In this document: piece by piece, positions 5,715 through 38,383 of the stretch
How positions within the stretch are numbered: position 1 is the first letter of the stretch
Layout: each line of letters begins with the position of its first letter
Assembly (NCBI GenBank): GCA_003598025.1
Contig: QZKH01000002.1
Coordinates: forward strand, 10,133 to 74,132
Source of the DNA: Candidatus Omnitrophota bacterium
GTDB lineage: Bacteria > Omnitrophota > Gorgyraeia > Gygaellales > Profunditerraquicolaceae
DNA: 64,000 nucleotides
Direction of reading: 5' to 3'
Position numbers and translations under genes: made by a program
The notes under the pieces: generated by a model
What the model saw: only the letters and a program-made list of their open reading frames with translations
Database searches by the model: none
Told to the model about the DNA's origin: nothing

Positions 5715-6050
5715 ATGTTTGGAGGAATTATGGCTACAATCGATGATTTTAAGAAGTTAGAGTTAAAAGTTGCTGAAATAAAAGAAGTTACAGATCATCC
5801 CAATGCAGATAAGCTATATGTCCTGACAGTAGATTTGGGGGATAAAACAAAACAACTTGTTGCGGGGATCAAGAGGTCTTACCAAAAAGAAGAGCTCATA
5901 GGTAAGCAGGTAATAGTTGTTGATAATCTGGAACCGGCGGTTCTAAGAGGTATCGAGAGCCAGGGGATGCTCTTGGCTGCTTCTGATGAAGACGGCGTAG
6001 CTATTATTTCCTGCCAGCGCAAAGTCAAGCTCGGCAGTATTGTTAAATAG
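5715..6050 (+). CDS. tRNA-binding domain protein (CsaA/EMAP-like OB fold)
   Basis: ELKVAEIKEVTDHPNADKLYVLTVDLGDKTKQLVAGIKRSY...GMLLAA is the tRNA_bind OB domain found in the CsaA/PheT N-terminus. It is a standalone 111-aa protein. Confidence 0.7.
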   Translation: MFGGIMATIDDFKKLELKVAEIKEVTDHPNADKLYVLTVDLGDKTKQLVAGIKRSYQKEELIGKQVIVVDNLEPAVLRGIESQGMLLAASDEDGVAIISCQRKVKLGSIVK

Positions 6051-6053
6051 CAT

Positions 6054-7358
6054 ATGAAAAATATTATAATCGGCGCAGGTTTATCGGGCCTATCCTGTGC
6101 ATACAAGCTCAAGGACGCAATAGTTTTAGAAAAGGATATCGCTATAGGCGGTTTATCTAAAACCTTGTCTTTTGAAGGTTTTAGTTTTGATATTGGAGGG
6201 CATAGATTTTTACCGGGTAAGCCGGGTATAGAAAAATTTATCCTTAGCCTTCTTGACGGCGAACTGATCAAGATGGAACGTAAGAGCCAGATATATAAGA
6301 ACAGAAGGTTTTTTAATTATCCTATAACTCCCGATATCGTTTTTCAGCTCAATCCTTTACAAATATTTGCTTCAGGCATGACCTTTTTATACCGTAAAGT
6401 AGCCGTCTTGGATGAAAATTCATTTAGAGAGAGGGTGATAAATAGATTTGGCGATTATCTATTCAATTATTTTTTTAAGGATTATACCGAAAAGGTATGG
6501 GGCAGGGATTGCTCTAATATATCGCTTGATTGGGTTGACGCTCGGATCGGCAATATGTCTTTATTTGACGTGGCTAGCTATATTTTTTCGAAGAAAAGCC
6601 GCCTTAAATCTTTCGCGGACATGTTTTATTATCCTAAAACCGGGATTGGTTCTATAGCGGGCAGATTGTCAAGCGGCATAGATGTAAGGACATCCAGCGC
6701 TGTCGTCGGACTGGGCTACTCGGGTGGCCATATAAATGAAGTTGTGACTGACGATAACAAACGATTGCCATGTGATAATCTTATTTCTACAATGCCTATA
6801 ACAGAATTGGCAAGCATGCTTAATCCTCCTGCCGATGTCAAAAGAGCAATTGATGCCCTTAGCTATAGGGACCTGATCTGCGTTTTTATAATTGTTGAAA
6901 AAAATAATTATTCTGATAACCATTGGATCTATTTTCCGAACAAGGAGGTATTTGGGCGTTTGGATGAGCCCAAGAATTGGAGCAGGATATTATCTTCTCA
7001 TCACCAAACTGGCCTTTGCCTTGAGATATTTACCGACAGAAACAGCGAATTGTGGCACAGGGATGATTTAGAGATCGCACATGCAGCCGTAAAAGATCTG
7101 CCTCTTATAAACGGAGTAGATATAAAAGACCATTATGTATTACGTGTCTTTGATGCTTATCCTGTATACGACCTCCATTATAAAAAGCATCTTGCCGTGG
7201 TCAGAAAATTCCTGTCCGGTTATAAAAACTTATATACATTGGGCAGGACAGGGGATTTTAAATATATGAATATGGATGATTGTATTGAGCAGGGGCTTAG
7301 CTTGGGGGAAAGATTACCCGGTTCCAGGGTCTTAGAGGAGGACCGTAAATGCAAATAA
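6054..7358 (+). CDS. FAD-dependent oxidoreductase (amine oxidase / UDP-galactopyranose mutase / protoporphyrinogen oxidase superfamily)
   Basis: N-terminal dinucleotide-binding motif IIIGAGLSGLSCAYKL...VLEKDIAIGG...GGHRF. It is 434 aa and adjacent to the glycosylation locus. Confidence 0.6.
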   Translation: MKNIIIGAGLSGLSCAYKLKDAIVLEKDIAIGGLSKTLSFEGFSFDIGGHRFLPGKPGIEKFILSLLDGELIKMERKSQIYKNRRFFNYPITPDIVFQLNPLQIFASGMTFLYRKVAVLDENSFRERVINRFGDYLFNYFFKDYTEKVWGRDCSNISLDWVDARIGNMSLFDVASYIFSKKSRLKSFADMFYYPKTGIGSIAGRLSSGIDVRTSSAVVGLGYSGGHINEVVTDDNKRLPCDNLISTMPITELASMLNPPADVKRAIDALSYRDLICVFIIVEKNNYSDNHWIYFPNKEVFGRLDEPKNWSRILSSHHQTGLCLEIFTDRNSELWHRDDLEIAHAAVKDLPLINGVDIKDHYVLRVFDAYPVYDLHYKKHLAVVRKFLSGYKNLYTLGRTGDFKYMNMDDCIEQGLSLGERLPGSRVLEEDRKCK

Positions 7359-7858
7359 AACAGTTTATTCCTCGCGATGTTTGTTTGTCCTGTAAAGGCT
7401 GCTGCAGGTTTTTACGGGCAGATTCAGTATGGTCGCCATGTCTTTTAGATGAAGAAATCCAGGACCTGCTGGGCAAAAATATCCCGGCGGCCAATATTTC
7501 TATCAACAAAAAACTGCTTCTCGTGCAAGCTCCTGATGGCCAGGGGTATTTATGCCCTTTTCTAAAGATAAAAGATAATAAGTGCAGTATTTATAATTTC
7601 AGGCCGTTTGAGTGTCAACTGTACCCTTTTTTGCTTAACCTGCGCCATGGTAAGATCATTTTAACAGTAGACCTTAATTGTCCTTACGTAAAAGAAAAAT
7701 TAAAAAGCAAGGAATTCAAAGAGTATGTTGATTATCTGAACGAGTTCCTTAATTCTCCTGCCCAATTGGAGATAATAAAGGATAACCCGCATATTCTTCA
7801 AACCTACGAAGAGGTCCTTGAGATAATCGAGCTTTCTCCTCCAGATGGAGCTAAATAA
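7349..7858 (+). CDS. YkgJ/UPF0153 family Cys-cluster (putative Fe-S/Zn) protein
   Basis: CLSCKGCCRF (CxxCxxCC) is the family hallmark. A second Cys pair lies near PFECQLYPF. Confidence 0.5.
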   Translation: MQIKQFIPRDVCLSCKGCCRFLRADSVWSPCLLDEEIQDLLGKNIPAANISINKKLLLVQAPDGQGYLCPFLKIKDNKCSIYNFRPFECQLYPFLLNLRHGKIILTVDLNCPYVKEKLKSKEFKEYVDYLNEFLNSPAQLEIIKDNPHILQTYEEVLEIIELSPPDGAK

Positions 7859-8735
7859 ACTAAGCATAAAAGATAAGCCGTTATTCAGCAAGTTTCTGAA
7901 GATTAAAAGGCATGAGCTTTCAGTTTATGCTTTTGAGAATATTTATCCCTGGTCCAGCTTATTTGAAATTAAATGGGGTATAATTAAGGGCAGCCTGTGT
8001 GTCTTCTTTTACGATAAGACAGGGTGTTTCTTATATATTGAGCCGTTAGCAAAAAATATCGATTACAAGGTCGTGGATAAATGTTTTGAGATCATGGATA
8101 GCCACAACAGGAATAAAGCGGTGTCCCGTATTGAGAATATAGAGCAGGACAACTGTAAGTTCTTTCATGACGCAGGCTACCGCCTCCTGGAAAAACCATG
8201 TGATTTTATTTTTCAGAAAAACAGTATCGCCGGGCTCAGAGGTAATGCCTATAAGTCAAAAAGAGCGAGCTTTAATTATTTTATTAAGCATTATAAATTT
8301 CATTCGCGGGATTTGGGAATAGAAGATATTGGCGCCTGCCTTAAGCTGTATTCCTCATGGGCTAAAAACAGAAGGCTCAGAGTTGAAGACCGGGCTTATC
8401 ATTGGATGATAGAAGATAGTTTTGCTTCCTTAAGGAGCGTATTGGAGAATTACCCATCTTTGGGTTATTCCGGCAGGGTAGTCGAGGTAGATGGTGATAT
8501 CCGGGCATTCACAATAGGGTACATGTTGAATAGCGATACCTTCTGTATATTCTTCGAGATAGCGGATCTGTCAATAAAAGGCCTGGCACAGTTTATTTTT
8601 AGTGATTTTTGTGCAGGGCTTAAGGCATATAAATATGTCAATGCGATGGATGATTCCGGGCTGGATAATTTAAGAAAAGTTAAGTATTCTTACCGGCCTC
8701 TAAAGCTGGTACCTGCGTACATCGCCGTCAGGTAA
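7845..8735 (+). CDS. Hypothetical protein, DUF2156-like (GNAT/FemABX-fold, possibly an aminoacyl-tRNA-dependent transferase domain)
   Basis: Size is ~296 aa. It has an SKRASFNYFIKHY motif resembling the K/R-x-x-x-N motif of the MprF C-terminal/FemX-like domain. I cannot assign it more firmly without an HMM search. Confidence 0.35.
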   Translation: MELNKLSIKDKPLFSKFLKIKRHELSVYAFENIYPWSSLFEIKWGIIKGSLCVFFYDKTGCFLYIEPLAKNIDYKVVDKCFEIMDSHNRNKAVSRIENIEQDNCKFFHDAGYRLLEKPCDFIFQKNSIAGLRGNAYKSKRASFNYFIKHYKFHSRDLGIEDIGACLKLYSSWAKNRRLRVEDRAYHWMIEDSFASLRSVLENYPSLGYSGRVVEVDGDIRAFTIGYMLNSDTFCIFFEIADLSIKGLAQFIFSDFCAGLKAYKYVNAMDDSGLDNLRKVKYSYRPLKLVPAYIAVR

Positions 8736-8743
8736 GGGTATTT

Positions 8744-9571
8744 TTGTTCATAGCTATGGATATAAATGATATAGAATTTACAATTTTTGATACCGAAACA
8801 ACCGGGCTTAACCCGCATTCCGGAGACAGGGTAGTTGAAATCGCCGCTGTCCGCATAAAGGGATTCCGGAAAATTTCAACATTTGAAAGCCTTATTAATC
8901 CAGGCAGAGGCGTATCTGAGGCGGCCTTTAATGTCAATCATATTGCTGAAAGCATGCTTCAAACAGCGCCGTTTCCGGAAAAAGTTTTTCCGGAATTCCT
9001 ATCGTTCATAAAAAACAGTTGCATCTGTTCATATAATGCAAGTTTTGATATTGCATTTTTGGATAAAGAGCTTGGATTGCTCGGCCAAAGATTAGACGAT
9101 AACGTTATTGTTATAGATATGCTGAAGATGGCCAGGCGCCTTTTGCCTGGTTTAGAGCGTTATGCCTTATGGTTTGTGGCAGACTATTTCGGCATAAAGC
9201 GCAAACAGGAACACAGGGCCTTAGCTGATGTGGAATTCAGCCTAGAGGTATTTTATAGGCTGATGAATATGTTAAAAGAAAGATCTATCGTAGAGATGGA
9301 TAATTTTATGCATCTTTTTGGAATAAGGTCTGAGGCGGTTTCCGGGATAAACAACGAAAAAATCGCCGAAATACAGGAAGCAATTGATCTTGGTGTTGAA
9401 ATAAAAATCAGATATATATCTGCGGTCAACGCTAAGGTTACAGAACGCAACGTCTTGCCGAAGCAGATTATACAGGATAAAGGGCAGGATTACCTGGTGG
9501 GGTATTGCAGCTTAAGGCAGGACCAGAGGACTTTTAGAATCGATGGCATACTGGATATCGAAATCTTATAA
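8744..9571 (+). CDS. DnaQ-like 3'-5' exonuclease (DEDDh) fused to a C-terminal WYL domain
   Basis: Exo I FDTETTG, Exo II YNASFDIAFL and Exo III HRALADV are present. The C-terminal 60 aa, IRYISAVNAKVTERNVLPKQIIQDKGQDYLVGYCSLRQDQRTFRIDGI, match the WYL-domain consensus (IxYxS...YLxGxC...RxFRxDRI). Confidence 0.7.
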   Translation: MFIAMDINDIEFTIFDTETTGLNPHSGDRVVEIAAVRIKGFRKISTFESLINPGRGVSEAAFNVNHIAESMLQTAPFPEKVFPEFLSFIKNSCICSYNASFDIAFLDKELGLLGQRLDDNVIVIDMLKMARRLLPGLERYALWFVADYFGIKRKQEHRALADVEFSLEVFYRLMNMLKERSIVEMDNFMHLFGIRSEAVSGINNEKIAEIQEAIDLGVEIKIRYISAVNAKVTERNVLPKQIIQDKGQDYLVGYCSLRQDQRTFRIDGILDIEIL

Positions 9572-10916
9572 ACTGGACTTTTCTTGCGCAGAGTTATTTT
9601 TGGCTCTGAGCCGGAAGAGGTCGCCGTTTTTCTTGGATAGCAGCCTTAATATGAATAATAAAGATGGGCGCTTTTCTTTCTTAGGTTGTGAGCCGTTTCA
9701 GTTTATCCAGGGAGATAAAATAAACCCTTTCCCGGCATTAAGGAAAATATTCCGCGATTACCGCATATCTGCCCCGGACATGAACGTGCCATTTTTCGCA
9801 GGAGCGGTCGGGTACTTTGCCTATGATTTGGGATTTGTTTTGGAAAAGAAAATTGCTTTAAATAAAAGAGCAGCAGGCAGTATCCCGCAGGTCTATTTTA
9901 ATTTTTATAATACCATTATTGCGATAGACCACATTAAGAATGAATTCCATATATTATCGGTCGGTTTTCCCGGGAGAAACTACCGGATGCAGAAAAAAAT
10001 AGCGACAGAGAATTTTAAGAATGCTTATAAAATGATACGGCGCGCTAAAGACGAGCGGGTTGACGATTGCCTTGGCATGAAACCAAAAAGAACAGATTTC
10101 CGTTCCGATTTTACTAAAAACAAATATATTGCGGCAGTCGTTAAAGCGAAGGATTATATTAAAAAAGGAGATATTTATCAGGTGAACCTTTCTCAGCGGT
10201 TGTCTTCTAAAAGCCGTGCCTCCGCGGTTAATATATATATGAATTTACGCAGGCTCAGCCCGAGTAATTTCTCTGCATATTTCGATACGGGAGATTTTCA
10301 GATTATTTCTTCTTCGCCGGAGAGATTCTTAAATTTATCCGGAGGACGTGTTGTAACAAAACCCATGAAAGGCACGCGAGCGCGCTCTTTAAATAGCGTA
10401 AAGGATATTAAGCTCAGAAATGAATTGATCCGCAGCCCTAAGGATAAGGCCGAGCTTTTAATGATAGTTGACCTGGAGAGGAATGATTTGGGCAGAGTTT
10501 GTGATTATGGTTCGGTAAAGGTCGATACTCTCAGGGAGATAGAAAAATATAATTCTGTCTTTCAGGCTACTTCCACAATAAGCGCTAAATTGCACCCTGG
10601 TAAAGACAGGTTTGATCTCCTGCAGGCATGTTTCCCAGGAGGTTCTATTACCGGTTGCCCTAAGATAAGGGCTATGGAGATAATCGATGAGCTTGAGCCG
10701 CTTGAGCGCTCCATTTATACCGGATGCCTGGGATATTTAAGTTTCTGCGGAAATATGGATTTTAATATTATGATACGCACCATACTTAAGCAAAAAGATA
10801 AGGTTTATTTGGGGGTTGGCGGAGGGATTGTAGCCGACTCAGAGCCTGTTAAGGAATATGAAGAAACTTTGGTTAAGGCCAAAGCTATGATTGAGGCTAT
10901 AGCTTATGCAGGGTAA
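9543..10916 (+). CDS. pabB: Aminodeoxychorismate synthase component I (chorismate-binding enzyme; PabB/TrpE family)
   Basis: Chorismate_bind motifs: SPERFL, KPMKGTRAR, DLERNDLGRVC, GAMEIIDELEP..RSIYTGCLGY. I call it pabB rather than trpE because a class IV aminotransferase-like lyase follows immediately and overlaps it. Confidence 0.7.
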   Translation: MAYWISKSYKLDFSCAELFLALSRKRSPFFLDSSLNMNNKDGRFSFLGCEPFQFIQGDKINPFPALRKIFRDYRISAPDMNVPFFAGAVGYFAYDLGFVLEKKIALNKRAAGSIPQVYFNFYNTIIAIDHIKNEFHILSVGFPGRNYRMQKKIATENFKNAYKMIRRAKDERVDDCLGMKPKRTDFRSDFTKNKYIAAVVKAKDYIKKGDIYQVNLSQRLSSKSRASAVNIYMNLRRLSPSNFSAYFDTGDFQIISSSPERFLNLSGGRVVTKPMKGTRARSLNSVKDIKLRNELIRSPKDKAELLMIVDLERNDLGRVCDYGSVKVDTLREIEKYNSVFQATSTISAKLHPGKDRFDLLQACFPGGSITGCPKIRAMEIIDELEPLERSIYTGCLGYLSFCGNMDFNIMIRTILKQKDKVYLGVGGGIVADSEPVKEYEETLVKAKAMIEAIAYAG

Positions 10917-11739
10917 AATGACGGTCTTTTTTAACGGTAAATTTGTAGACAGGCATGATCTGAAGGCTTCGGTCCTGGATGAAGGGTTTCTTTATGGATA
11001 CGGGCTATTTGAAACCATGCGTGCTTACAATAATAAAATATTATTATTAGACCAGCACATAGAAAGAATGTTTGTTTCTGCAGGATTGATATCTTTTGCA
11101 ATGCCTTATTCATCGGCAAAAACCAGGGATATAGTGGAATCAGCCGTTCTAAAATCCGGCTTAAAAGACGCCTTTGTAAGGTTGTCATGCTGGAGGTCAA
11201 AGAAGATAAACAGCATATTAGTCATTGCAAGAAAATACAAACCCTACTCTTCGAGGGTGTATAAAAAAGGTTTTTCTGCTATAATCTCAAGGTTTACTAA
11301 AGACCAGGATTCAATGTTAAGCAGAATAAAAAGCAATAACTATCTTTTATGCAGGTTGGCTTTTATGGAAGCCTTAAGCCTTAAGTCCGATGAAGCAATT
11401 TTGTTGAACAACGACGGATTAATCTGTGAAGGCAGCAGGTCGAATATTTTCTTTGTAAAAAACAGACGGATTTATACGCCTTCTTTAGAATGCGGCTGTT
11501 TATCCGGCATAACGAGGGAATTGATTATAAAGATGATTCTTAGATCAGGGCTGGATGTCAAAGAGGGTAAATTCGGGATTAACCAGTTATATGCAGCAGA
11601 TGAGGCTTTCTTTACCAATTCTTTGATGGGTGTTATGCCTTTAACTAAAATCGGCAAGCTCAGGATAAATAACTCTAATACCGGTAAGATAACCGAAAAA
11701 CTCATTTCCGATTACGATAACTTATTAAAAAACGCATGA
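10906..11739 (+). CDS. pabC: Aminodeoxychorismate lyase (class IV aminotransferase fold)
   Basis: GFLYGYGLFETMRAYNNK...LDQHIERM is a class IV (BCAT/ADCL) signature. The position after pabB and the size (277 aa) fit PabC. Confidence 0.6.
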   Translation: MQGKMTVFFNGKFVDRHDLKASVLDEGFLYGYGLFETMRAYNNKILLLDQHIERMFVSAGLISFAMPYSSAKTRDIVESAVLKSGLKDAFVRLSCWRSKKINSILVIARKYKPYSSRVYKKGFSAIISRFTKDQDSMLSRIKSNNYLLCRLAFMEALSLKSDEAILLNNDGLICEGSRSNIFFVKNRRIYTPSLECGCLSGITRELIIKMILRSGLDVKEGKFGINQLYAADEAFFTNSLMGVMPLTKIGKLRINNSNTGKITEKLISDYDNLLKNA

Positions 11740-12851
11740 CAATAATTAACCTTCCGTTTATTATGAAAAGTCCGGTGCTGGCTCTAGGCGCCAACAGCAA
11801 GAATAGAATCTGTTTTGCTAAAGGCAGTAAAGCATATTTAAGCAATATGCATGAGAATTTGGATAACATAGATGATCTATCCGAATTTGAAAAAAGTGCC
11901 AAGAGCGCATTAAGCAGAAAGCCAAAAATCATCGCCTGTGATCTGCACAGCGGATATTTATCCAGCAGATACGCTGATGAAATAAGCGAAGGCAATTTAT
12001 TAAAAAAGCCTATCCAGCACCATCACGCTCATATTGCTTCATGCATGGCCGAGAACCAATTTAAAAATGAATACGTTATAGGTGTTGCTTTCGACGGCAC
12101 GGGTTTAGGCGTTGACGGCAATATCTGGGGAGCAGAATTTCTTTTCTGTAATTATGCAAATTTCCAGAGGTTAATCCGCCTAGAATATATCCCGCTCCTG
12201 GGTTCGGAAAAGGCAATAACTGAACCGGCAAGATTAGCATATCTATGGTTGTACTTAATTTATAAAGATAGATTCTTGGATATAAAGATTAACCTGACCC
12301 AGGCTTTAAAGCCAAAGAAATGGGCGGTCTTTAAAAAGATGTATTCATCCGGCTTTAATTCTCCCAAAGCAAGCAGTATGGGACGTTTGTTTGATGCTGT
12401 CGCCAGCATAGTACTCGGCAAGCAAAAGGCAGAATTTGAGGCGGATTTAGCCATACAGCTTCAGAGGCTTGCTGAGAAAAGCAGTGATGTGCAGGCAGCT
12501 TATAAATTTTCATTTGTAAAACAGCCGCCTCTTTTTGTAATAGACCCAAGAGATATCTTTAAGGGTGTGGTTAAAGATACGACAAGCGGGCTGCCTGCCG
12601 GATATATTGCTAATCGGTTCCATTATACTATTGCCAGTATAATACTTGAGGGAGCAGAAAAAATAAGAAAGATAAAAAAGGCCAATAAAGTCGTGCTTTC
12701 AGGAGGGGTATTTCAAAATAGTCTTTTACTCCGCATGACTTTGGAATTATTATATAAGAAAGGCTTTAAAGTTTATACCCACAAGGCTTTATCCCCGAAT
12801 GACTCAAGTATAGCCTTGGGGCAGGCAGTAATAGCTAACTTCAAGGAATAA
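11736..12851 (+). CDS. hypF: HypF C-terminal Kae1/TsaD-like carbamoyltransferase domain, standalone (the acylphosphatase, Zn-finger and YrdC domains are absent)
   Basis: VLALGANSKNRICFAKGSKAYLSNMHENL...KIIACDLHSGYLSSRYA...IQHHHAHIASCMAEN...VIGVAFDGTGLGVDGNIWGAEF matches the HypF Kae1-like domain (HHHAH and DGTG(Y/L)G(D/V)DG motifs). At 371 aa it covers only about the C-terminal half of a canonical ~750-aa HypF. Confidence 0.7.
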   Translation: MTIINLPFIMKSPVLALGANSKNRICFAKGSKAYLSNMHENLDNIDDLSEFEKSAKSALSRKPKIIACDLHSGYLSSRYADEISEGNLLKKPIQHHHAHIASCMAENQFKNEYVIGVAFDGTGLGVDGNIWGAEFLFCNYANFQRLIRLEYIPLLGSEKAITEPARLAYLWLYLIYKDRFLDIKINLTQALKPKKWAVFKKMYSSGFNSPKASSMGRLFDAVASIVLGKQKAEFEADLAIQLQRLAEKSSDVQAAYKFSFVKQPPLFVIDPRDIFKGVVKDTTSGLPAGYIANRFHYTIASIILEGAEKIRKIKKANKVVLSGGVFQNSLLLRMTLELLYKKGFKVYTHKALSPNDSSIALGQAVIANFKE

Positions 12852-12852
12852 T

Positions 12853-13065
12853 ATGTGCTTAGCAGTCCCAATGAGAATAAAGAAGATTAATCAAAATTTC
12901 GCCAAGGTTGAAATCTCCGGTCTTATACGGCATGTAAACGTGCAGATGCTACCCGGGTTAAAAAAGGGAGATTATGTAATCGTGCATGCGGGTTTTGCGA
13001 TACAAAAAATAGACCCCCTGGAAGCCAAAAAAACATTAAAGGTGTTTAATGAAATATGTAGATGA
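12853..13065 (+). CDS. hypC: Hydrogenase maturation factor HypC/HupF
   Basis: The N-terminal MCLAVPMRI has the essential Cys2. The 70-aa OB-fold protein starts 2 nt after the hypF-like stop and overlaps hypD. Confidence 0.85.
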   Translation: MCLAVPMRIKKINQNFAKVEISGLIRHVNVQMLPGLKKGDYVIVHAGFAIQKIDPLEAKKTLKVFNEICR

Positions 13066-14152
13066 ATTCCGCAATAAAATACTTGTTGAGAAGATCGCAT
13101 CAGGGATCAAGGCCTTGAATATCGACGCAAAAGTTAACCTTATGGAAGTCTGCGGAACGCATACTCAAAGTTTTGCAAGGTTTGGCCTGAATAAATTCCT
13201 GCCTGAAAATATACGGCTTATACCGGGACCGGGATGCCCGGTTTGCGTTTCAAGCCCGCAGTATATAGATAGGGCGATTAGCTTGGCCAAAGACAAAAAC
13301 AATATAATTGTTACTTTCGGTGATATGCTGCGTGTCCCGGGTAGCGTATCATCTCTAGAAAAAGAAAGGATGCGTTTTGGCAATGTTATTGCCGTATATT
13401 CACCGCTGGATGCCTTAAGGATTGCCAAGGCGGATTCCGCAAAAAAAATATTTTTTCTTGCCGTTGGTTTTGAGACTACAGCCCCCACTATTGCTATAAC
13501 AGCAATGCTTGCCAAGAAGGAGAAAATAAACAATATTTTCTTTCTATCTTCCCTAAAGCTGATGCCGCCTGCGATGAGGTTTTTGTTAAAAGATAAGAGG
13601 CTTAATATAGATGGTTTTCTTTGCCCGGGGCATGTCTCCAGCATTATCGGTCTTAAGCCCTATGAATTTATACCGCGTAAGCATAAAATAGGTTGCTGTG
13701 TGGCAGGTTTTGAGCCGACGGATATCTTAGAAGGAATACTTATGCTTTGCCGGCAGATCGCAGACAATAAGCCCAGGGTAGATAATCAATACAGCAGGGT
13801 TGTAAAAAATAACGGCAACCCTAAAGCCCGGAAAATTATCCACAATGTATTTGAAACCTGCGATGCGCAGTGGAGAGGCTTAGGCGTGATTACAAATAGT
13901 GGCCTTAAATTAAGAAAAAAATACTCGGGTTTAGATGCCGAGTCAATCATGCATTTTGAGAGAAGAACAGTGTTCCATCCGGAAGAGTTTGCTAAGGGAT
14001 GCAAATGCGGCCAGGTTCTAAAAGGGCTGATTATGCCTAAAGACTGCCCGTTATTCTACGTGAAGTGCAAGCCGGATTCTCCCATTGGCCCATGTATGGT
14101 TTCCAGCGAAGGAGCATGCAATGCGTATTTCAGGTATAAAAGGCAGAAGTAA
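13049..14152 (+). CDS. hypD: Hydrogenase maturation factor HypD
   Basis: MKYVDEFRN N-terminus, the CGTHTQSF and PGPGCPVCV motifs, and the C-terminal Cys-rich CKCGQV...CPLFYVKC. Confidence 0.85.
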   Translation: MKYVDEFRNKILVEKIASGIKALNIDAKVNLMEVCGTHTQSFARFGLNKFLPENIRLIPGPGCPVCVSSPQYIDRAISLAKDKNNIIVTFGDMLRVPGSVSSLEKERMRFGNVIAVYSPLDALRIAKADSAKKIFFLAVGFETTAPTIAITAMLAKKEKINNIFFLSSLKLMPPAMRFLLKDKRLNIDGFLCPGHVSSIIGLKPYEFIPRKHKIGCCVAGFEPTDILEGILMLCRQIADNKPRVDNQYSRVVKNNGNPKARKIIHNVFETCDAQWRGLGVITNSGLKLRKKYSGLDAESIMHFERRTVFHPEEFAKGCKCGQVLKGLIMPKDCPLFYVKCKPDSPIGPCMVSSEGACNAYFRYKRQK

Positions 14153-35860: not shown

Positions 35861-38383
35861 ATGGATAAACCTAAAGAAAAAACCGGATTATCTCTTCAAG
35901 AAAAGCTATTATCCTTCCAAAGTCTTATAAATAATTTCCCTATCCCAATATTTTACAAGGATTTAAAAGGCAATTATCTGGGTTGCAACCTGGCCTTTAA
36001 GCAATACCTCGGGTTGGATAAAAGCGATATTATAGGCAAGAGCGCATATGATATTTCTCCGGTTGATCTAGCGATTAACCATAAAGAGCGGGACCAGGAG
36101 TTATGTGAAAAAGGCGGGTCCCAGAAGTATGAAACAGCGGTTCTTGGCGCAGACGGCTTAAGGCATAATGTCGAATTCTATAAAGAGGTATTTTATGATG
36201 AAAAAGGGAATAAGGCCGGAATAATCGGGATAATATTTGATATAACCGAAAGAAAGAAGAAAGAAGAGTTATTAAAAGAGGCCCGCCAGGAATTAGAGAT
36301 AAGGGTTAAGGTGCGCACTGCAGAGATAGCCAAGATAAACGAGGATCTGCGTAAAGAAATCAATGAAAGGAAACGCGCAGAAGAAGCTCTGCGGGAAAGC
36401 GAAGAAACATACAGGGCGCTTGTTAATAACTCGCTGTTTGGTGCTTTTATTATTCAAGATGAGAAGATCGTATTTGTTAACCCAAAAATGATGGAGGTTA
36501 TGGGTTATTCCCAGCAGGAAGCGTTGAATGAGGATATTTTTGCATTTGTCCATCCCGAAGATAAAGAAAAGGTGAGAAATTATTATCACCTGCGTCTAAC
36601 GGGAAAAGATGCCCCGAGTGTTTATGAAGCCAGGGGTATAGCTAAAGATGGCAAGGTGATCTATTGGCAAGTGCAGGCATCGTTGATAAATTACCGGAAT
36701 AGGCCGGCGATTTTTGTGAACTTAGTAGATATAACGGCGAGAAAGGAATTCGAGGATAAGCTTGAAAAAAGCAAAGAAGAGATACGGATGTACCTGGATA
36801 TTGCGAATGTCATAATATTGATTATAGATAAAGATTCCAAAGTAAGATTGATAAATAAAAAGGGCTGCAACGTACTCGGCTATAATGATTATAAGGAGAT
36901 TATAGGCAAAGACTGGTTTAATACATTCTTGCCTAAGAAATACAGGAATAAGGTAAAAGAGGTCTTTGAGGAGCTGATGGCAGGCAAGGTTAAAGAATTC
37001 GGAGAGGCAGAGAATCCTGTTATAACCAGGGATGGCAAGGAAAAAGTTATACTTTGGCATAACAGCCTGATAAAAGATCCCGGAGGCAAGATAGTTGCCA
37101 CTATCAGTTCCGGGCAAGATATCACGGAGCGCAAAGCCGTAGAAAAGAAAATTGCCCATATGAACCTTGAACTCAATAGGACCAACAAGAAACTTAAACA
37201 GCTGGCTTTGCTTGACCTGGGTACAGGCGTATATAACCACCGTTATTTAACCGAAATTATCGAAGCTGAATTCTACCGCGCAAGAAGATATGCGCATCCT
37301 TTATCTGCGATAATGATGGACGTGGATTATTTTAAATCCATAAATGATGTGTACGGGCATAAATTTGGAGACATGGTCTTAAAACAGCTTGCAACCCAGC
37401 TTAAGAAGATGGTGCGTAAATATGATATCATCGTCAGGTTCGGCGGCGAGGAGTTTGTAATAATCTCTCCGGGGGCAGATAGGTCCACAGCCTTGGTTTT
37501 AGCACAAAGATTATTAGATGCTGTCAATTTGTATAATTTCGGCAACAAAATACATTCAGTTAAAATACGCATGAGTGTGGCTGTAGTCTCATACCCGGAA
37601 GATAAATCAGTAAAGGGGATGGACCTTATTGATGAAGCCGCAGAGATTGTAAATAAAATAAAAGAAAAAGGCGGTAATGCCGTTTCCTGCTCCCTGGATT
37701 TAAAAAAGGTAAAAACCAGGGTTAAGGTTAATCACAAGGCGCATGATAATGTCAAGTCTCTGCAGAGAAGGGTCAACCTTCTTAATAAAAGGTCCAAGGA
37801 AAATCTGATTGAAGCCGTTTTTGCTTTTGCTAAAACAATAGAAGTCAGGGATCATGGCACTGGTGAGCATACTGAGAGAACAGTAGGGTATGCCACGCAG
37901 ATAGCAAAGGCCATGAATCTGCCTCAGGAAGAAATCGAGCATATAAAACAGGCAGCGATACTGCATGATTTGGGAAAAATAGGCATAAGCGAGGACGTTT
38001 TAAACAAGAAAGATAAATTAACTAAGGAAGAATTTAAACAGATACAGAAGCATACCCAAATAGGCGTAGATATCATTCGCCCTATACAGTTCCTTCACCC
38101 CATAATCCCGCTGATACTTTACCATCATGAGAGATGGGATGGTAAGGGCTATCCGGGCGGTTTAAAGGGCGAAGAGATACCTGTAGGCGCAAGAATAGTC
38201 GCATTGGCAGATGTATACCAGGCTTTGACTTCGGACCGCCCTTACCGTAAGGCATTTTCTAAAGACAAAGCCATAGAAATCATCAAAAATGGCTCCGGAT
38301 CGCATTTTGACCCGCAGATTGTAAACATATTCCTGAATTTAATCAATATCAAAGAGAAAGTAACTAAGAAAAAGCGCCATTAG
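35861..38383 (+). CDS. Multi-PAS sensor with GGDEF diguanylate cyclase and HD-GYP phosphodiesterase domains
   Basis: At least three PAS-like repeats are present. The GGDEF active site is RFGGEEF. The HD-GYP motifs are ILHDLGKIGI and HHERWDGKGYPGG. Confidence 0.85.
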   Translation: MDKPKEKTGLSLQEKLLSFQSLINNFPIPIFYKDLKGNYLGCNLAFKQYLGLDKSDIIGKSAYDISPVDLAINHKERDQELCEKGGSQKYETAVLGADGLRHNVEFYKEVFYDEKGNKAGIIGIIFDITERKKKEELLKEARQELEIRVKVRTAEIAKINEDLRKEINERKRAEEALRESEETYRALVNNSLFGAFIIQDEKIVFVNPKMMEVMGYSQQEALNEDIFAFVHPEDKEKVRNYYHLRLTGKDAPSVYEARGIAKDGKVIYWQVQASLINYRNRPAIFVNLVDITARKEFEDKLEKSKEEIRMYLDIANVIILIIDKDSKVRLINKKGCNVLGYNDYKEIIGKDWFNTFLPKKYRNKVKEVFEELMAGKVKEFGEAENPVITRDGKEKVILWHNSLIKDPGGKIVATISSGQDITERKAVEKKIAHMNLELNRTNKKLKQLALLDLGTGVYNHRYLTEIIEAEFYRARRYAHPLSAIMMDVDYFKSINDVYGHKFGDMVLKQLATQLKKMVRKYDIIVRFGGEEFVIISPGADRSTALVLAQRLLDAVNLYNFGNKIHSVKIRMSVAVVSYPEDKSVKGMDLIDEAAEIVNKIKEKGGNAVSCSLDLKKVKTRVKVNHKAHDNVKSLQRRVNLLNKRSKENLIEAVFAFAKTIEVRDHGTGEHTERTVGYATQIAKAMNLPQEEIEHIKQAAILHDLGKIGISEDVLNKKDKLTKEEFKQIQKHTQIGVDIIRPIQFLHPIIPLILYHHERWDGKGYPGGLKGEEIPVGARIVALADVYQALTSDRPYRKAFSKDKAIEIIKNGSGSHFDPQIVNIFLNLINIKEKVTKKKRH

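Follow-up and report, generated by a model that had tools for sequence, protein, structure and literature searches.

The window analysed here, 64,000 nucleotides of contig QZKH01000002.1 from the Candidatus Omnitrophota bacterium assembly GCA_003598025.1 (positions 10,133 to 74,132 of the forward strand), encodes a protein in which a DnaQ-type DEDDh 3'-5' exonuclease is fused to a C-terminal WYL domain. The fusion, referred to below as exo-WYL, is a populous, multi-phylum architecture that has already been catalogued; the window protein is a new member of a known but experimentally untouched family, and its architecture is unsurprising to a specialist. The protein is best read as a stand-alone, chromosomal housekeeping 3'-5' exonuclease whose WYL domain would bind single-stranded nucleic acid, a reading in which confidence and doubt are about evenly balanced. 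Single-stranded DNA (ssDNA) is favoured over RNA as the ligand, because the closest relatives of both domains act on or bind DNA.

The exonuclease and WYL domains

The N-terminal part of the protein is matched by the Pfam RNase_T model PF00929 at E=9.6e-33 (114.5 bits against a cut-off of 24). Residues are numbered here according to a 271-amino-acid form of the protein, except that Pfam domain limits refer to the 275-amino-acid open reading frame (ORF). All three exonuclease motifs are intact, as a reading made earlier from the sequence alone had stated, and their catalytic residues are close to invariant: among 99 diverse family members D12, E14 and H153 are each present in 98, D98 in 97 and D158 in all 99, while N94 of the Exo II motif is kept in 94.

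Sequence matches among structures in the Protein Data Bank (PDB) include the T. maritima PolC exonuclease (2p1j, E=1.6e-26) and E. coli epsilon (E ~1e-17), as well as DinG, Cas2-DEDDh and ExoX. The DnaQ/PolC-type enzymes have the DEDDh fold and the three motifs in common with exo-WYL, at 37% identity for 2p1j and 31-32% for epsilon, and superpose on it with a root mean square deviation (rmsd) of about 1.8-2 Å over ~172 residues. Unlike the PolC exonuclease, however, exo-WYL has no polymerase around it. Foldseek retrieves epsilon, PolC and ExoX at E=1e-12 to 1e-14 and rmsd ~1.8-2.2 Å, and DinG too; RNase T and TREX are matches of fold only, at 18-21% identity. No single solved structure contains both domains, and the query-normalised template modelling score in Foldseek never exceeds 0.61. 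The top NCBIfam match of the exonuclease part is the DEDD exonuclease model PRK07883 (PRK07883.1-4, 150 bits), and PolC and dnaQ models are also among the best. By sequence, the domain is closest to the DNA proofreading exonucleases, and its nearest characterised relatives all act on DNA. The combination of a DnaQ-like exonuclease with a second nucleic-acid-handling module is likewise found in PRK07883 (exonuclease and GIY-YIG), S. aureus DinG and Cas2-DEDDh; exo-WYL differs from these in its fused partner, and its PRK07883 score of 150 lies well short of the equivalog cut-off of 495.

The C-terminal part is matched by the WYL model PF13280 over ORF residues 206-274 (E=5.7e-14; 52.3 bits against a cut-off of 21.8; profile positions 2-70 of 70), and the WYL motifs Y246-L247 and R258-T-F-R-I-D-G-I are present. 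The fusion proposed in the sequence-only reading is thus borne out by profile search for both halves, and the possibility it had raised against itself, that the C-terminus might not be a WYL domain at all, is ruled out, the whole profile being covered. Its placing of the domain in the last 60 residues was right as to identity and short as to length: the domain occupies nearer 69 residues and follows a long helix at 193-212.

An AlphaFold2 model built on a 99-sequence alignment has a predicted local distance difference test score (pLDDT) of 95.9 and a predicted template modelling score (pTM) of 0.89. In this model the exonuclease part adopts an RNase H-like fold, and a barrel is predicted at 216-270 from strands 216-221, 228-241, 244-251, 256-261 and 265-270. 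Because of the pTM of 0.89, the model indicates that the two domains are held in a fixed mutual arrangement. The WYL domain is conserved as strongly as the exonuclease part, with mean pairwise identities of 66.0% and 66.4%, respectively, among Omnitrophota orthologues and 32.8% and 37.1% family-wide; the domain has therefore been kept by selection and is no fortuitous beta-hairpin.

WYL domains also occur in the transcription factors PafBC, DriD, BrxR and CapW, in which a winged helix-turn-helix (HTH) precedes the WYL barrel and a WCX extension follows it. The barrel of exo-WYL is homologous to theirs, and PafBC and DriD respond to ssDNA. However, the Pfam scan found no HTH family in exo-WYL, which begins instead with the exonuclease domain, and no WCX extension follows the WYL domain, the protein ending one residue past the match. 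Lacking both, exo-WYL lies outside this regulator class; it is an enzyme, not a regulator. The earlier generalisation that WYL domains usually regulate defence is also too narrow, as PafBC and DriD control responses to DNA damage and the WYL domain of Pif1 is a plain ssDNA-binding accessory.

It is to Pif1 that the closest comparison can be made. Among solved WYL sequences the nearest is the Pif1 helicase of Deferribacter desulfuricans (DdPif1, 8bnv; E=3.7e-6), followed by PafBC (6sj9; E=9.3e-6). The ssDNA contacts predicted for DdPif1 are R464, R491, R495, R498 and R501 (PMC9964779), and the same paper reports TePif1 mutagenesis and a DriD-ssDNA structure as support for such contact residues. 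In the HMMER alignment these five residues correspond to R231, R254, R258, R261 and G264 of the window protein. Across the 99 family members arginine stands at the five positions in 87, 71 (with lysine in a further 10), 88, 67 (lysine in a further 9) and 73, respectively. The resemblance to the Pif1 WYL tails (TePif1, DdPif1 8bnv and SsPif1 8bns) takes in the preceding helix, and four of the five predicted contact arginines are kept in exo-WYL. In both proteins the WYL domain is attached as a C-terminal tail to an enzyme that processes DNA, with neither HTH nor WCX. In exo-WYL, by contrast, a 3'-5' exonuclease takes the place of the SF1B helicase, and ssDNA binding by its WYL domain is a prediction from the alignment.

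A family spread over several phyla

Among 5.8 billion proteins, a word-indexed search retrieved 1416 relatives. PF00929 and PF13280 are both present in all of the best 120, which are 271-280 amino acids long and, apart from an identical protein (P0001), share 56-63% identity with the window protein; every taxon-named entry among these 120 is labelled Omnitrophota or Omnitrophica. With phmmer, 151 matches at E<=1e-30 were found over 1.84 billion representatives of clusters at 50% identity, and full-length exo-WYL proteins (255-315 amino acids) make up 102 of the best 150, down to ~30% identity. A profile built from sequences that are not of the Omnitrophota type gave at least 7592 matches, of which the best 120 all have both domains. 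Named members outside Omnitrophota come from Chloroflexi/Anaerolineae, Deltaproteobacteria and candidate division WOR-3, with one from Ignavibacteriales. Four metagenomic proteins (P0130, P0138, P0140 and P0153) consist of the exonuclease only; they are 190-220 amino acids long, with 46-52% identity to the exonuclease domain, and reach into the first linker helix without a WYL domain, and they may be complete or may be fragments at contig ends.

A WYL domain fused to a '3'->5' exoRNase' was already listed by Makarova et al. 2014 (PMC4012209). The architecture there is the same, as it is in NCBI entries named 'WYL domain-containing protein' or 'exonuclease domain-containing protein', and it is listed or named only; no function, structure or survey of context was found in either. 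No member of the family has apparently been studied experimentally, despite thousands of sequences in at least five phyla. The protein offers a compact, single-chain model of ~270 amino acids, with a confidently predicted structure, for deciding whether a WYL domain on an enzyme is a plain tether like that of Pif1 or an allosteric switch like those of PafBC and DriD. Its value therefore lies in a tractable enzyme-fused WYL model, in an unexplained tRNA-linked operon of the Omnitrophota, described below, and in the correction of automatic annotations. The identical protein P0001, which is encoded on a 409-kb contig, is named 'MAG: WYL domain-containing protein [Candidatus Omnitrophota bacterium]' by NCBI and assigned to a 'DNA polymerase III epsilon' family by JGI. 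The JGI automatic label 'DNA polymerase III epsilon/alpha subunit' is misplaced on proteins of this architecture; nor are WYL and DEDDh domains alone any ground for counting them as defence genes.

Substrate and cellular role

As we infer its substrate, tethering role and pathway, the conserved arginine surface of the WYL barrel of exo-WYL would hold a single strand, and the rigidly attached DEDDh domain would use two-metal catalysis to take nucleotides off the 3' end. The WYL domain would thereby tether the enzyme to its substrate, or switch the enzyme on in response to it. In the cell this activity would probably serve housekeeping DNA maintenance: in repair, recombination or replication restart it would trim 3' tails or ends with mismatches. 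The earlier suggestion of DNA or RNA end processing was a reasonable one. The sequence-only reading had also proposed a ligand-gated nuclease. Compared with a WYL domain that binds single-stranded nucleic acid, gating by a small molecule is less parsimonious, since Pif1 and PafBC, the nearest WYL relatives, bind ssDNA and the predicted contact arginines are conserved in exo-WYL.

A number of points weigh against a housekeeping enzyme that binds ssDNA. The WYL1 domain of Cas13d binds single-stranded RNA. The fifth of the arginines equivalent to those of Pif1 is a glycine not only in the window protein but in all 16 aligned Omnitrophota orthologues. In the Omnitrophota, the invariant link of the gene to tRNA_bind and to an aminoacyl-tRNA-transferase-like gene points to RNA. 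The domain fused to WYL is labelled a 3'-5' exoRNase in PMC4012209, and WYL domains are described in PMC11880434 as able to bind cyclic di-GMP (c-di-GMP). Finally, no characterised exonuclease-WYL protein, and no biochemical data for any member, were found in the literature searched.

Genomic context bears on both DNA and RNA as substrates. Gene neighbourhoods were compared via orthologues in 17 contexts, namely the window and 16 other loci, of which 10 are from Omnitrophota and six from other phyla. In the window and in all 10 of the other Omnitrophota loci, genes for a tRNA_bind protein, a CxxCxxCC protein and an LPG_synthase_C/DUF2156 protein precede exo-WYL in that order and on one strand, and this holds even for orthologues of only 35-39% protein identity. 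Start and stop codons overlap in several of these loci. Downstream of exo-WYL the genes vary between Omnitrophota loci, being pabB-pabC, HypF_C-HypC-HypD or others.

This arrangement underlies the alternative that exo-WYL is an RNA 3'-end enzyme, namely an exoribonuclease that binds single-stranded RNA through its WYL domain and, in the Omnitrophota, would work on tRNA or aminoacyl-tRNA together with the products of the three upstream genes. LPG_synthase_C is known from MprF as its aminoacyl-tRNA-dependent transferase domain, and RNase T, itself a DEDDh enzyme, trims tRNA 3' ends. The contiguity of the four genes ahead of a varying downstream region, the overlapping codons and the exoRNase term of Makarova et al. 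2014 all fit such a role. However, the exonuclease domain is far nearer to the DNA proofreading types, RNase T being a fold match of only 19-21% identity. The block neighbours are absent in all six members from other phyla, and no other partner gene shared by these six was found. The operon also holds the unrelated genes pabB, pabC, hypF, hypC and hypD, such that adjacency may reflect no more than a conserved mixed operon. We consider an RNA 3'-end enzyme unlikely on this evidence. A narrower form of the idea is a long shot: in it the Omnitrophota protein is an obligate fourth member of the operon, has RNA instead of DNA as its substrate, and serves an uncharacterised pathway of aminoacyl-tRNA-dependent transfer as a 3' exoribonuclease, guided by WYL, for the trimming or checking of tRNA 3' ends. 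If true, this would give a WYL domain its first enzymatic role in RNA metabolism beyond CRISPR.

A second alternative makes exo-WYL the replicative proofreader of the Omnitrophota, equivalent to the epsilon subunit of DNA polymerase III, with the WYL domain in the place of the C-terminal segment by which E. coli epsilon binds alpha. The score of exo-WYL is above the cut-off of TIGR00573, the broad domain model for the 'epsilon subunit family' (99.2 bits against 71.5), in keeping with the JGI automatic annotation, and the protein is near-ubiquitous in the Omnitrophota data, with very many clusters, constant length and fixed synteny; no second DnaQ-like ORF lies within the 64-kb window, and no second WYL ORF either. 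Yet it falls well below the cut-off of every epsilon equivalog (TIGR01406, 112 against 222.7; NF004316, 109 against 196; NF004964, 105 against 236; NF004963, 79 against 245) and below those for PolC, and the claim of the sequence-only reading that this is not an epsilon subunit holds to the extent that the protein is no canonical epsilon. An alpha-binding tail like that of epsilon is absent, the C-terminal 69 residues being a complete WYL domain, and matches to epsilon in the PDB stop at residue 169.

A candidate counterpart to the clamp-binding peptide of epsilon is the motif NFxxLF at residues 183-188, which is invariant among orthologues (F184, L187 and F188 in 16 from Omnitrophota) and occupies the same relative place as QTSMAF, reportedly the clamp-binding motif of E. 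coli epsilon at residues 182-187. However, the segment is predicted as an ordered helix with pLDDT ~93 and not as a disordered peptide, and the D-L-L-x-L-Q-G that stands at this position in the wider family is a packing-helix pattern. A beta-clamp-binding peptide was accordingly rejected as the leading reading of NFxxLF, the segment being helical and ordered and the motif not conserved family-wide. Nor does the distribution favour a proofreader, in that the same architecture is found in Deltaproteobacteria and Chloroflexi, which as far as is known have canonical replicase proofreaders, and further DEDD exonucleases lie near the gene in the Ignavibacteriales locus. A replicative role for exo-WYL is thus quite unlikely.

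For the favoured reading, an exonuclease of housekeeping DNA maintenance, the contexts outside the Omnitrophota are of interest. The surroundings of the gene there are varied and of housekeeping character. In the Ignavibacteriales locus exo-WYL lies 3.1 kb downstream of recX, in a recA-recX arrangement, and overlaps a PolB-exo-like gene. At this locus (L087, 3093-14893) recA and recX are followed by two AI-2E transporter genes and then by a PolB-exo2-like gene, whose sequence overlaps the start of exo-WYL; farther downstream of exo-WYL come an HTH_11-WCX regulator of the PafBC/DriD-like kind, a second RNase_T gene of 164 amino acids and an AAA ATPase. The group may represent a DNA-damage cluster.

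A close relative of exo-WYL was not found in IMG/VR; one distant exo-WYL lies there in the early DNA-metabolism region of a high-GC, prophage-like contig, UViG_3300020202_000104. This protein (L098, 5989-6777) has 262 amino acids, combines RNase_T with WYL (26.8 bits for the latter) and is encoded beside phrog_10477, an 'exonuclease'. The contig also has genes for an integrase and a DNA methyltransferase, and the architecture thus also occurs in the early region of a temperate phage. Together, the recA-recX locus and the prophage early-region copy lend weak circumstantial support to a role in DNA metabolism.

Among PLSDB plasmids and INPHARED phage genomes there are matches to the exonuclease domain, and no full-length exo-WYL was confirmed. 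An Allochromatium plasmid match of >80% coverage was rejected as a full-length copy, as it is a 205-amino-acid exonuclease whose tblastn alignment runs into the next gene; another match of >80% coverage falls in a Fusobacterium plasmid record that carries no annotation. In PADLOC the matches are at the level of domains only, to generic DEDDh and WYL models (E=5e-15 for WYL), with residues 7-176 also matching the exonuclease part of the candidate system PDC-S48 and the C-terminal region matching the WYL-containing C-terminal part of RTasWYL-YodC; no model of a full-length defence protein in PADLOC matches exo-WYL.

The phage defence suggested by the sequence-only reading, in which the WYL domain would sense a small molecule or phage-derived nucleic acid and switch on the exonuclease in anti-phage immunity, draws on the regulation of CBASS, BREX and CRISPR loci by WYL domains, on the matches to PADLOC models (Cas-associated DEDDh, WYL and PDC-S48) and on an Mrr_N protein two genes upstream in one WOR-3 locus, and it is very improbable given that the 17 contexts have no recurring defence genes around exo-WYL, that the Omnitrophota copy sits in a conserved block of core genes and not in a variable island, that the window around it is housekeeping chromosome, and that neither the plasmid and phage collections nor PADLOC yielded more than the domain-level matches described above. 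The simpler view that the earlier reading had set against its own, namely that the fusion is a standard housekeeping architecture in this phylum, largely holds, as hundreds of Omnitrophota clusters have it at a length of 271-280 amino acids and its gene sits in an invariant block of housekeeping genes.

The Omnitrophota gene block and the window

The features of the gene and its neighbours are collected in Table 1.

Table 1. Features of the exo-WYL gene and the adjoining genes, in window coordinates
Feature	Position	Strand	Remarks
tRNA_bind (PF01588)	5715..6050	+	First gene of the Omnitrophota-conserved block
FAD amine-oxidase / UDP-galactopyranose-mutase-like gene	6054-7358		Between tRNA_bind and CxxCxxCC
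CxxCxxCC (YkgJ-like, PF03692)	7349..7858	+	Second block gene
LPG_synthase_C/DUF2156 (PF09924)	7845..8735	+	Third block gene, directly upstream of exo-WYL
Antisense ORFs inside exo-WYL	8728-8937 and 9253-9450	-	65-69 amino acids
Shine-Dalgarno-like AGGTAAGGG	8730..8738	+	Read from sequence; overlaps stop codon of upstream DUF2156 gene
exo-WYL ORF	8744..9571	+	275 amino acids from TTG 8744 or 271 from ATG 8756; stop 9569-9571
DnaQ-type DEDDh 3'-5' exonuclease domain (RNase_T, PF00929)	8783..9253	+	ORF residues 14-170
Exo I, DTETTGL	8789..8809	+	Catalytic D12, E14
Exo II, YNASFD	9032..9049	+	Catalytic D98
Exo III, HRALAD	9212..9229	+	H153, D158; define DEDDh subtype
Folded linker	9284..9391	+	Short helix 181-188 with NFxxLF, then long helix 193-212 into the WYL barrel; pLDDT 82-93
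WYL domain (PF13280)	9359..9565	+	Predicted Sm-like five-strand barrel; conserved R231, R254, R258, R261
pabB (aminodeoxychorismate synthase component I)	9543..10916	+	Start overlaps exo-WYL 3' end by 29 nucleotides

The ORF has just the coordinates and strand that the list of the sequence-only reading gave for it. The start codon of exo-WYL is ambiguous by four residues: AGGTAAGGG lies 5 nucleotides from TTG 8744 and 17 nucleotides from ATG 8756, and the length of the identical database protein corresponds to ATG 8756. The element AGGTAAGGG is a putative ribosome-binding site for the gene. The other results are unaffected by the choice of start. The overlap with pabB is also found in two further loci (L002 and L004).

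The tRNA_bind/CxxCxxCC/DUF2156 block may constitute an uncharacterised aminoacyl-tRNA-dependent transferase module. In one locus (L090) the CxxCxxCC and LPG_synthase_C/DUF2156 parts are fused into a single protein of 476 amino acids. The FAD amine-oxidase-like gene has this position in this genome only; the other Omnitrophota loci are without it at that place, and L088 has a small YjbQ gene there instead. Two metagenome-assembled genomes labelled 'uncultured Planctomycetales' (L006 and L008) carry an Omnitrophota-type exo-WYL, at 51-55% identity, together with the full upstream block, and these labels are probably wrong.

The window as a whole is ordinary housekeeping chromosome, with genes for EF-G, PurH, a Mur-ligase-type protein, MnmE, an AcrB-type pump and hydrogenase maturation proteins. 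It contains 62 ORFs of at least 150 amino acids, and essentially every plausible gene is on the forward strand, with many overlaps of start and stop codons. A large signalling protein at 35861-38383 combines three PAS domains with GGDEF and an HD-GYP-type HD_5 domain, a composition that suggests a role in c-di-GMP turnover. At 11736-14152, and also in L001, L004 and L009, HypF is represented only by its C-terminal, Kae1-like half (HypF_C and HypF_C_2, 371 amino acids), with hypC and hypD after it; none of the N-terminal parts (acylphosphatase, zinc finger and YrdC) adjoins this reduced form.

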